From: Candidatus Omnitrophota bacterium
GTDB lineage: Bacteria; Omnitrophota; Gorgyraeia; Zapsychrales; JANLHA01
Assembly: GCA_963662715.1 (NCBI GenBank)
Contig: OY759724.1
Coordinates: 588,670 to 652,669, forward strand
DNA length: 64,000 nucleotides
Direction of reading: 5' to 3'
Of the stretch, positions 2,872 to 5,800 are shown piece by piece. How positions within the stretch are numbered: the first letter of the stretch is position 1; each line of letters begins with the position of its first letter. A program made the position numbers.

Positions 2872-5800
2872 TTAATAATTCGTCTTCGTCAATCTTGATT
2901 TCTGTCCCACTGTATTTGCCATAGAGGACACGATCCCCAACTTTTACTTCCAATGCTTGAATTTTACCGCTATCTAACACTTTCCCTTTACCAACAGCTA
3001 CTATCTTGCCTTCCTGAGGCTTCTCTTTTGCTGTGTCTGGTATAACAATGCCTCCTTTAGTCTTATCTTCGGACTCCAGTGATTTAACAACAATTCGATC
3101 ATGTAATGGTTGTATTTTCATGTTTAATATCTCCCTTGTCTAATCTGTTGATTTCCGTTTCGGGCTTATTGTTGTATGCCCTCACGGGTATCAGTTCCTT
3201 TTCTAATTATTTTAGGTTGTTGGCTCTGATTTAAATTCTGCATCAATAATATCTTCATCATTTTTATTTTTGCCTTGCTCCTGTTCTTGGCTTTGACTGC
3301 CTTTTTGTGATGATGTCTGATACATCTGCTCTGCCATTTTATGGCTAGCCTTTTGAAGAGATTCCATAGCATTTTTAATCCGTGTTTCGTCTTTGGCTTC
3401 AATGGAATCCTTTAATCCTTTGATCGCAGTTTCAATGTTATTTTTATCTTCAGAGCTAACTTTATCTGAAGAATCCCTCAATGACTTTTCAGCTGCATAA
3501 ACAAGACTATTTGCTTGGTTAAGAATTTCTGCTGTCTCCCGCTGTTTTTTATCTTCCTCTGCAAATTTTTCAGATTCCTTAATCATTCGGTCAATTTCAT
3601 CTTTTGATAGCTTTGTTGGTGCCGTTATCGTGATTGACTGCTCTCGTCCCGTTCCTTTATCTTTAGCAGAAGCGTGGACAATGCCATCGCTATCAATATC
3701 AAATGTAACATCGATTTGCGGAATTCCCCTGGGTGCTGTTGGAATACCTGTTAAATTAAAACGGGCTAACTCTGTATTATCTTTTGACATTCCACGTTCA
3801 CCCTGAAGCACCCGGATGGTTACTACAGTTTGATTATCCGCAGCAGTAGAAAATATTTCACTTTTCTTAGTAGGTATAGTCGTATTCTTTTCTATCAATT
3901 TGGTAAAAACACCACCGTCTGTTTCAATCCCTAAAGAAAGCGGCGTCACATCCAATAATAATACATCTTTCGTTTCACCCTTGATAATACCGGATTGGAT
4001 AGCCGCTCCCATTGCCACACATTCCATTGGATCAATGCCGCGTTCAATCTTTTGGCCAACTTCCTTCACGACAAACTCTTGAACAATCGGCATTCTTGTT
4101 GGACCGCCAACTAAAATAATTCTATCTATTTCTATCTTTTGCCCTATCTTGTCTGAAGCGTCTTTAATAGCTTGATGAAGAGGTGCTCGGCATCTCTCAA
4201 CAATAGGGTCGACCAAAGATTCCAATTTTGCTCTTTCGATCGGCATTGTCATATGCTTTGGCCCCATTGCGTCAGCCGTAATAAAGGGCAGATTAATATC
4301 TGTCGAAATTGTACTTGATAGCTCAACCTTTGCTTTTTCGGCTGCTTCTCGAACCCTTTGTATCGCCATTTTGTCATTTTTGAGATCAATACCGGTTTCT
4401 TTTTTAAATTCACTAACAATATAGTCAATGAATGTATTATCCATATCTGTTCCACCAAGCTGATTATCACCATGTGTTGACAAAACTTCAAATGTCGCTG
4501 CCTTACTTGTGTTATCCCACCCCATCTCAAGAATGGTAACGTCCAGGGTTCCACCACCGAAATCAAACACCATAATCTTTTGTTCTCTACCAATTTTATC
4601 AAGCCCATAAGCCAGACACGCGGCCGTCGGCTCATTGATAATTCTCAAAACTTTTAATCCAGCAATCTCTCCGGCGTCTTTGGTTGCCTGTCTCTGACTA
4701 TCGTTGAAATATGCAGGTACAGTTATAACAGCTTCTTCAACAGGCTCACCAAGATATTTCTCTGCATCGGTTTTAATCTTTTGAAGAATAAATGAGCTGA
4801 TTTGTTGGGGCGTATATTCCTTATCAAAGACTTTGAATTTATCGTTTGATCCCATCTTTCGTTTTGCACCAAAAACAGTGCCTTGCGGGTTTATGGAAGC
4901 CTGTCTTTTTGCTGGCTCTCCAATTAACCGTTGTCCATCTTTTGTAAATGCCACAAAAGACGGAAAAGCCTTACCCGAAGCAACACCCGCTCCTTCAGCA
5001 GATGGGATAATTTTCGCTTGCCCACCTTCCAATACAGCTGCTGCTGAGTTCGACGTCCCTAAATCTATTCCTATTGATTTTGCCATGATAACTCACCCCT
5101 TTCGCTTTCAATACTTCATTAAAATTGGCATAAGTTCTTTCTCAAAATTGCTTTTTGAAACAAATGCATCTATTTTTGCCTCCATAAATCGTTTTCTTGT
5201 CTGTCTAAGAAAAATCTCGGTTGTAAGAAATACTCTTACGGCCACCCCTTACGCAACCATAATAAATTTGACCGTCAACATACTGATACCTACTTATCTA
5301 ATAATATTAAATAGAAATTAAACTTCTCTTCTTTCGATAGCATTGTAGCTCTAATCAAAAAACAAACAATTGTACCTAGGTATAATAGGAAAAGTTGAAG
5401 GTTAAAAGAAAAGGGGGAGGGCGATTTTACTGAAGGGGGCTAATGATTATTGCCGATTGGAAGAAACGTATCCGGCTTTTTAAGAGAAACGAGTGAGTTC
5501 GGTAACAGTTTTGGCCTGCATTTTCTGCATGACCCGGCTGCGGTAAGCTTTAATCGTCTGACTAACGGTGCCGAGTTAGGGGCAAAGTTAACAGATATGG
5601 ATGCTTCAATTTTGGGGGAACAAAGAATTTAATAATTTTCAAATATTGCCAATGTTTTTTATCTTTTTTTTTCTATTTAAAATTTGTTGTTTTCGAGCTT
5701 TGTAAGATAAATCTTTTCAATGAGTTCCAACTCCGTTGTACGCCAGTGGGAGGTACGGTCAGCCAAATGTGCGCAGATAAATTTTTCTTGTATCTTCATT

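Follow-up and report, generated by a model that had tools for sequence, protein, structure and literature searches.

A palindrome-plus-promoter module conserved across Omnitrophota and its candidate FixJ/StyR-family response regulator

Three copies of a promoter-operator module in the window

The window analysed here is a stretch of 64,000 nucleotides of contig OY759724.1 from a Candidatus Omnitrophota bacterium (assembly GCA_963662715.1). Direct reading of the sequence revealed the same promoter-operator module at three places on the minus strand, each of them 5' of minus-strand genes: a chaperone operon and two operons that encode small envelope proteins and receiver-only response regulators (Table 1). 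The module is composed, in order, of a 16-bp palindrome, an abutting -35 element (TTGWTW), a 16-nt spacer and a -10 element (TACAMT). The palindrome, hereafter the box, has the consensus TTRTACC-NN-GGTAYAA, a 7-2-7 inverted repeat. The initial annotation had described -35 and -10 elements with a 16-nt spacer as part of this module, and all three sites indeed showed sigma-70-like -35 and -10 hexamers at a spacing within 16-18 nt and 5' of a gene; the core promoter of copy 2 was also picked up by a consensus promoter scan.

The palindrome pattern was searched on both strands allowing up to two mismatches, and compared with 100 shuffled sequences. Seven strand-hits were found against 0.53 expected, a number reached in none of the 100 shuffles, and six of the seven correspond to the three sites counted on each strand. 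A position weight matrix (PWM), built from sites in relatives and not from the window copies, scored the three boxes at 32.7-36.3 bits, while the maximum in 50 shuffles was 12.9 bits. The next match (13.6 bits) was the opposite-strand reading of site 1, and the remaining window positions all scored below 7 bits. The -10-side block GATYAGNNCTACAMTG was restricted in the window to the three module places. A candidate fourth site at 47400-47415, with two mismatches and a PWM score of 6.7 bits, was discarded as a chance match, since it is intracoding and has no promoter. Reading, palindrome statistics and PWM scores thus agree with the initial annotation in that one element recurs at three loci, with two amendments: the third copy starts at 20856 instead of 20857, and the CAyTG of the plus-strand consensus fails in copy 3, which reads CAGTGTAG (CAGTG).

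Other promoter readings were tried and rejected. A promoter within the palindrome, whose right half reads TACAAT, would have no usable -35, and a divergent plus-strand promoter at the palindrome likewise lacks a usable -35 and has no plus-strand genes near it. Sigma-54, extracytoplasmic function (ECF), sigma-32 and Bacteroidetes-type promoters misfit in spacing and bases, as judged by eye. No Rfam family was found at the three sites.

The three window spacers (5348-5363, 12349-12364 and 20863-20878) share the block GATYAGRKC and a C at -13 (KCTACAMT), and the three copies also have the leader AAAAGGAGGGAAG in common.

Conservation in Omnitrophota and allied genomes

The palindrome-plus-promoter module is conserved phylum-wide in Omnitrophota. 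An exact-pattern scan (TTRTACCNNGGTACAATTG) of the GTDB representative genomes, with one genome per species, gave at least 118 loci; the counts of loci and sites in relatives given here and below are among the matches listed. Ninety-three of the 118 belong to Omnitrophota or to allied metagenome-assembled genomes (MAGs), namely 66 Candidatus Omnitrophota, 20 bins labelled 'uncultured Planctomycetales', 3 Firestonebacteria and 4 other bins, these last four with the full architecture. In the 93 loci TTGAyy, 16-17 nt and TAnAAT come after the palindrome, and the full layout was present at 99 of 138 pattern matches, the three of the window included. Unrelated phyla account for the remaining 25 loci, of which only three have even a TAnnnT at the right distance, as chance would give. 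Several contigs hold two or three copies within 8 kb, and the secondary sites, which were not used for locus selection, retain both half-sites and the TTGA, so the search pattern does not by itself account for the conservation.

The closest relative among the matches listed was Candidatus Aceula meridiana (Omnitrophota), in which the kinase, regulator and receiver described below are 78%, about 80% and 79% identical to those of the window, respectively. Its orthologous receiver promoter shares ATTAGGACTACACTG with the window spacer block. Across the phylum, spacer enrichment is limited to a T-tract and the C at -13, and the GATYAGRKC block is not conserved.

Some variants of the box were also seen. 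At three loci the box is fully symmetric, with TTGA on either side, and a single dimer bound there may serve divergent promoters; tandem TTGTACTTTGGTRCAA-type boxes were found in a 'delta proteobacterium' MAG and at one further locus.

Promoter geometry and predicted transcription starts

A start codon (ATG or GTG) lies exactly 6 nt past the -10 element at 37 of 141 sites in the relatives, against a mean of about 3 sites for each of the other offsets, and 23 of these 37 starts open reading frames (ORFs) of at least 60 amino acids. The N-terminal extension encoded from the offset-6 starts (MQLEELQL…) recurs in the internal 140-aa receiver of the window (MQVDELRL…), which argues that the starts are real and that the corresponding mRNAs are leaderless. 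Leaderless-type genes of this sort occur at eight of the loci in relatives and at others besides, as well as at five of the remote loci described in the next section; they are found especially at the receiver-only gene, with the extension conserved as MQxEELxL.

The leaderless genes of the relatives would place +1 seven bases past the -10 element, and the centre of the palindrome at about -42.5 with the 16-nt spacers of the window, or at -43.5 with 17-nt spacers. This estimate, made from sequence, supports the initial proposal that the palindrome abuts the -35 element at an activator position near -42. For the 250-nt dnaK leader that follows from the predicted start, no Rfam family was detected, folding was no better than that of shuffled sequences (z = -0.66), and neither the receiver gene nor any of the loci retrieved was homologous to it.

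A candidate response regulator and its kinase

The initial annotation had likened the palindrome to CRP/FNR-family boxes and pointed to a dimeric regulator encoded elsewhere, and neither part of that proposal was supported. The conserved T-T-R-T-A-C-C / G-G-T-A-Y-A-A matches neither the CRP consensus (TGTGA-N6-TCACA) nor the FNR consensus (TTGAT-N4-ATCAA), and no cNMP-binding or HTH_Crp protein was present among the 52 window ORFs scanned. The best candidate, instead, adjoins site 3: a StyR/FixJ-like response regulator gene that ends 186 nt ahead of box 3, preceded directly by a histidine kinase gene (Table 1).

The regulator has the receiver and C-terminal GerE/LuxR-type helix-turn-helix (HTH) domains of the NarL/FixJ family (Response_reg, 1e-23; GerE, 6e-16). 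Residues D12, D13, D56 and K106 are invariant in 18 regulator orthologues. Its closest relatives of solved structure in the Protein Data Bank (PDB) are StyR (3e-49, over the full length) and FixJ (2e-38), while NarL is a remote one (6e-14). Among Omnitrophota orthologues the HTH segment LQTIKVHRxRVMQKM is nearly invariant, in keeping with the near-invariant box. The top PDB match of the kinase was the engineered LOV-FixL chimera YF1 (4gcz, 1e-73). A LOV photoreceptor kinase was nonetheless rejected, since the adduct-forming Cys of the GXNCRFLQ motif is not present: residues 148-156 read GKNYFLLYG, in which Tyr replaces the photoactive Cys and the Arg and Gln of the motif are also replaced, and GxNYFxxYG is conserved in kinase orthologues. 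FixJ and FixL were the top NCBIfam models for the pair, but orthology to FixL/FixJ was rejected as well because the equivalog cut-offs were not reached (187 versus 255 bits for FixJ, and 215 versus 850 bits for FixL).

Synteny, a reciprocal test and co-variation link this regulator genetically to the box, an inverted repeat suited to a dimer. Of the loci selected by the motif, at least 27 have a kinase-regulator pair 62-78% identical to that of the window; in these the regulator ends just ahead of a box, within about 100 nt of it in most cases. An extra box lies 5' of the kinase at four of the loci, suggesting autoregulation in those genomes. For the reciprocal test, metagenome loci were chosen by the regulator protein alone. 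A box with its promoter was found 7-250 nt past the regulator stop codon in all seven orthologue loci that have sequence there. In loci of remote homologues (41-53% identity), 19 box-like sites were found in the 300 nt past the stop (19.3 kb in total) and a single one in the other 289 kb, a density ratio of 189-fold. This inside-versus-outside comparison replaced a lax palindrome search of the remote loci (28 of 65), whose yield was estimated to be not clearly above chance. The box of the remote loci is followed by a leaderless gene for a 125-aa receiver-only protein, so the three-part module is conserved there too.

Residue 173 of the recognition helix, two before K-V-H-R, co-varies with positions 3-4 of the half-site. 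Gln at this residue pairs with RT (TTRTACC) in 36 of 38 cases and Ile with AT (yTATACC) in 11 of 12; Lys pairs with GG (TTGGACC) on both half-sites in seven of eight, the eighth having GG on one half-site.

Genes downstream of the boxes

The ORFs within 2.5 kb downstream of 99 sites were clustered, and a receiver-only homologue was found behind 37 of the 99 boxes. Other recurrent families were DUF1328, BON (OsmY-like), Transgly_assoc (YmgE/GlsB type), DUF5670, DUF3309, DUF2934 and PLDc_N, together with ferritin, Fe/Mn superoxide dismutase (SOD) and the B12-binding radical SAM protein. This gene set resembles the general-stress regulons of other bacteria, and on the basis of its gene families we infer a putative 'general stress' regulon. 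The presence of like genes behind the box across Omnitrophota supports the earlier view of the module as a regulon marker that joins chaperones, envelope and stress proteins and receiver-only regulators.

In the window, Pfam searches bore out the gene identities first assigned (Hsp70, Cpn60 and two receiver-only response regulators). The regulators had been called orphans; they are instead paralogues of the receiver domain of the regulator, to which the receiver-only proteins are 35% identical. As for the 'LTXXQ protein' behind box 2, an LTEEQ motif is present, although no Pfam or NCBIfam model matched; an orthologue of this 133-aa protein lies 50 nt past a box in one relative. The radical SAM gene at 9211-10785 probably belongs to the box-2 transcription unit, and its orthologues (77-82% identical) begin 68-150 nt past boxes in three relatives. 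Orthologues of the box-3 operon sit downstream of boxes in relatives, as does a dnaK orthologue (76% identity) in one of them. The window genes between the sites that have orthologues behind boxes elsewhere encode a DUF3309 protein, a 153-aa protein and the radical SAM, BON and Transgly_assoc proteins.

Two further receiver-only proteins are encoded on the minus strand of the window. One (8622-9089, 155 aa) lies inside the gene run after site 2, and a 155-aa homologue is found behind boxes in several relatives; the other (141 aa) is at 32991-33416.

Table 1. Positions of the boxes, promoters, predicted starts and genes of the module in the window
Feature	Position	Strand	Sequence or elements	Remarks
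Operator box, copy 1	5370-5385	minus	TTATACCTAGGTACAA	5' of dnaK-groES-groEL; PWM 33.1 bits
Core promoter 1	5342-5369	minus	-35 TTGTTT (5369-5364), 16 nt, -10 TACAAT (5347-5342)	
Predicted start, promoter 1	near 5335	minus		about 250 nt 5' of the dnaK ATG; offset from leaderless relatives
dnaK	3212-5086	minus		after box 1; Pfam
groES	2831-3121	minus		after box 1; Pfam
groEL	1204-2844	minus		after box 1; Pfam
YflT-domain stress protein	105-656	minus		after box 1; Pfam
Pseudogene remnant of regulator 3' end (HTH-coding)	5440-5565	minus		5' of box 1; 81% nucleotide identity to 21091-21194
Operator box, copy 2	12371-12386	minus	TTATACCTCGGTACAA	PWM 36.3 bits
Core promoter 2	12343-12370	minus	-35 TTGATA, 16 nt, -10 TACAAT (12348-12343)	
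Predicted start, promoter 2	near 12336	minus		offset as in leaderless relatives
Membrane ORF, 47 aa	12134-12277	minus		after box 2
LTEEQ-motif protein, 133 aa	11707-12108	minus		after box 2
Receiver-only regulator, 140 aa	11245-11667	minus		after box 2
B12-binding radical SAM protein	9211-10785	minus		Pfam
Operator box, copy 3	20885-20900	minus	TTGTACCCAGGTACAA	perfect palindrome; PWM 32.7 bits
Core promoter 3	20857-20884	minus	-35 TTGATT, 16 nt, -10 TACACT (20862-20857)	
Predicted start, promoter 3	near 20850	minus		GGAGGG Shine-Dalgarno; GTG start at 20833
Receiver-only response regulator, 121 aa	20468-20833	minus		first gene past box 3; Pfam
Further genes past box 3	17894-20340	minus		141-aa membrane protein, BON-domain protein (18996-19766), Transgly_assoc protein (18626-18958) and 192-aa protein; Pfam
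Candidate box-binding response regulator, 207 aa	21087-21710	minus	REC + GerE/LuxR-type HTH	Pfam
Sensor histidine kinase	21697-23142	minus	LOV-like PAS + HisKA + HATPase	directly 5' of the regulator; Pfam

Origin of the dnaK copy

In the pseudogene remnant 5' of box 1, the final ~100 nt of the regulator gene are preserved in degenerate form (…QTIKAYRSRVMQKMQAKTVTELTRFS* versus …QTIKVHRSRVMQKMQAKTVTELIHFAQKAGLISSK*), and alignment and translation showed that about 45 nt of intergenic sequence past it are homologous too. Remnant and flank indicate that the dnaK promoter arose by copying of a cassette comprising the regulator 3' end, the box and the promoter. Such copying probably explains the GATYAGRKC spacer block and the leader common to the window copies, although a second factor might also account for the block. 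The regulator fragment beside the dnaK promoter illustrates how a chaperone operon can be recruited into a regulon through copying of a promoter-operator cassette.

The remnant lies in a region of about 950 nt (5386-6330, 36% GC) without ORFs of 60 aa or more, between a good intrinsic terminator (6102-6085, minus strand) and site 1. The remnant aside, no match to Rfam families or to fetched loci was found for this region.

Comparison with known systems

We know of no cultured, genetically tractable member of Omnitrophota, and no literature on promoters or gene regulation in this phylum was found. The system is a phylum-wide new case of a well-known kind of system. In class-II-type activation, LuxR-type HTH dimers bind inverted repeats centred at about -42.5 to -44.5 that overlap or abut the -35 element, such as the 7-2-7 heptamer pairs of NarL/NarP and the lux box. 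The half-sites of the box have the same 7-2-7 arrangement as those of NarL/NarP, but the NarL half-site is TACYYMT, and NarL is, as noted above, a remote relative of the regulator. LuxR is controlled by a ligand rather than by phosphorylation.

The StyS/StyR, TodS/TodT and TmoS/TmoT systems are closer. StyR is the closest solved homologue, and the K-V-H-R of the recognition helix is common to both proteins. StyR-type regulators recognise ATAAAC-N4-GTTTAT through Lys175, Val176 and His179 (PMC5874301). Like this STY/tod box, the box described here is a 16-bp inverted repeat that can be read in a 6-4-6 frame, with the A-C…G-T inner positions and four of six bases per half-site identical; it reads, however, TTATAC-N4-GTAyAA in place of ATAAAC, and the third DNA-reading residue, His179, is replaced by Gly or Ser, while Lys and Val are kept. 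These departures point to a related specificity, not to the same one. Phosphorylated StyR (StyR-P) serves as an activator of PstyA through the high-affinity site STY2, at about -40, and also represses from additional sites (PMC2442086); the activating site of StyR lies about where the box is predicted to lie (PMC2442086, PMC5874301). The present system differs in that the kinase is short and LOV-like/FixL-like rather than a double sensor of the StyS/TodS kind, in that the putative targets are stress genes and not an aromatic catabolic operon, and in having several target promoters per genome instead of one.

The FixL-FixJ-FixT system of alpha-proteobacteria resembles it in its components, namely a PAS kinase whose catalytic core is FixL-like, a regulator with receiver and LuxR-type HTH domains, and a receiver-only protein induced, here putatively, by the system. 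FixT, which consists of a single receiver domain, exerts feedback inhibition on FixL (PMC7078487). No haem-type FixL sensor domain was identified in the kinase described here, whose PAS domain is LOV-like; the receiver gene lies directly behind the box as a proposed target, and the putative regulon concerns stress protection and not microaerobic respiration. In Fix systems the receiver gene is controlled through FixK.

Sigma-S, sigma-B and EcfG/PhyR with LovK-LovR govern general stress regulons, which as commonly described contain OsmY-like BON, YmgE/Transgly_assoc, DUF1328, ferritin, SOD, YflT and small membrane proteins, as found behind the boxes; LovK-LovR also combines a LOV-type kinase with a receiver-only protein. 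In contrast to these systems, control here appears to be exerted by a response regulator at sigma-70-like promoters and not by an alternative sigma factor. HrcA-CIRCE, which also controls chaperone operons, was considered for the dnaK promoter and rejected: TTAGCACTC-N9-GAGTGCTAA had no match with up to three mismatches in the whole window, and the element described here lies 5' of the -35 and not over the start site.

Proposed mechanism and alternative explanations

We consider it fairly likely that phosphorylated dimers of the FixJ/StyR-family regulator bind the box and activate sigma-70-type promoters of a stress regulon from about -42.5, with feedback by the receivers. In this model the gene at 21087-21710 would specify the response regulator that binds the operator, and the cytoplasmic LOV-like PAS kinase of 21697-23142 would be its partner. 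On a signal the kinase would phosphorylate the regulator, which would dimerise on the box and recruit RNA polymerase through sigma region 4 and/or alpha, in the class-II manner. In the window this would turn on dnaK-groESL-yflT, the small-membrane-protein/LTEEQ-protein/receiver operon and the receiver/BON/Transgly_assoc operon. The induced receiver-only paralogues would probably modulate the kinase in turn, by serving as a phosphate sink or by FixT-like inhibition. Direct binding, activation rather than repression and the feedback role of the receivers are put forward here as what the comparisons suggest. Activation is favoured because the junction of box and -35 is fixed in distant lineages with different boxes and weaker core promoters, because StyR activates from the same position, and because the site lies 5' of the core promoter and not over it.

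Several observations weigh against this model. Every functional step in it is deduced from sequence. The -35 and -10 elements are near consensus, so that there is no obvious need for an activator and repression is possible, and the PWM scan gave no box 5' of the kinase-regulator operon in the window. The co-variation comes from a few clades and therefore does not represent many independent events, and with site 1 a duplication, part of the similarity between the window copies, including GATYAGRKC, may reflect shared ancestry and not selection. The 'general stress' label comes solely from gene families, and dnaK was seen behind a box in just one other sampled genome and groESL in none; the chaperone link may be lineage-specific.

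The same regulator could bind the box and yet repress, or act in both ways, by occluding the upstream edge of the -35 or the contacts of the alpha C-terminal domain until a signal arrives. The near-consensus core elements (TTGATT, 16-17 nt, TAnAAT) would suit such a role, as would the repression exerted by StyR-P from additional sites (PMC2442086). The box, however, stays fixed beside the -35 in distant lineages that have other boxes and weaker -35 and -10 elements, as is usual where an activator contacts sigma region 4. The homologue StyR acts as an activator at about -40 (PMC2442086), and the sites of repressors most often overlap the -35 and -10 elements or the start site. We therefore regard repression or dual action as rather unlikely. 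It is also unlikely that another dimeric factor encoded elsewhere, for example of the CRP/FNR type, binds the palindrome and that the two-component system does no more than recur as its target or neighbour. Palindromes centred near -42 suit many regulator families, and at 64 kb the window is only a part of the genome; but the box is unlike the CRP and FNR consensus sequences, the scanned window ORFs include no such protein, loci selected by the regulator protein showed the 189-fold enrichment, a residue of the regulator helix co-varies with box bases, and the box resembles that of the closest characterised homologue (PMC5874301).

That the palindrome is part of an extended promoter read by the polymerase itself, as an UP-like element or through an alternative stress-type sigma factor, appears very improbable. 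Its fixed position abutting the -35 would fit, as would the C at -13 in 62 of 94 sites (the KCTACAMT of the window recalls the -10 regions of stress sigma factors) and a gene content like that of sigma-S, sigma-B and EcfG regulons. On the other hand, sigma and alpha subunits do not read DNA as 16-bp elements of two-fold symmetry, in some relatives the box is fully symmetric and has TTGA on either side, and the box co-varies with the regulator and not with any sigma factor; the sole sigma factor of the window is of the ECF type, whose usual promoter pattern is different. Finally, the three copies could be inert relics of local duplications that play no part in regulation, considering that a duplicated fragment of the regulator gene flanks site 1 and that the three copies have spacer and leader bases in common. 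The comparison with relatives already contradicts this scarcely credible explanation, since box and promoter are conserved phylum-wide ahead of orthologous genes, with variable flanks.

A wider claim is that the general stress response of Omnitrophota, and of some allied lineages, is governed by a two-component system and not by an alternative sigma factor. It would combine a LOV-like PAS kinase, a FixJ/StyR-like regulator, receiver-only feedback, box-bearing sigma-70 promoters and many leaderless mRNAs, and as one joint claim we offer it tentatively, as a possibility that falls short of being probable. Related kinase/regulator/box/receiver modules were also found in bacteria of soil and sediment metagenomes. 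If true, it would represent a separate and widespread design of master stress regulon with a readable specificity code, in which residue 173 is set against box positions 3-4. The co-variation between this residue and the bases of the box suggests a specificity rule that could serve to predict the operators of uncharacterised FixJ/StyR-family members. The box itself offers a handle on regulation in this phylum: the operator is defined, a candidate regulator and kinase are named, and predictions are at hand for the transcription start and for a regulon that takes in chaperones, SOD, ferritin and many small envelope proteins.

Other features of the window

A c-di-GMP-I-GGC riboswitch was detected at 27939-28017 on the minus strand (61.7 bits versus a gathering score of 59). 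It precedes genes for an ECF sigma factor, a zf-HC2 anti-sigma factor and a Metal_resist/LTXXQ-like protein (26091-27664, minus), an arrangement that we judged unusual. Downstream of the stress region, the minus strand also has a large gene cluster (34118-55415) rich in radical SAM genes, five of them B12-binding and five others, two with SPASM; carbamoyltransferase, split transketolase, epimerase, glycosyltransferase and short-chain dehydrogenase genes are found in the same cluster. All the substantial ORFs and both tRNA genes (His, 23919-23995; Arg, 25130-25205) are on the minus strand, and the GC skew is negative throughout the window (1-64000), consistent with a single replichore arm.

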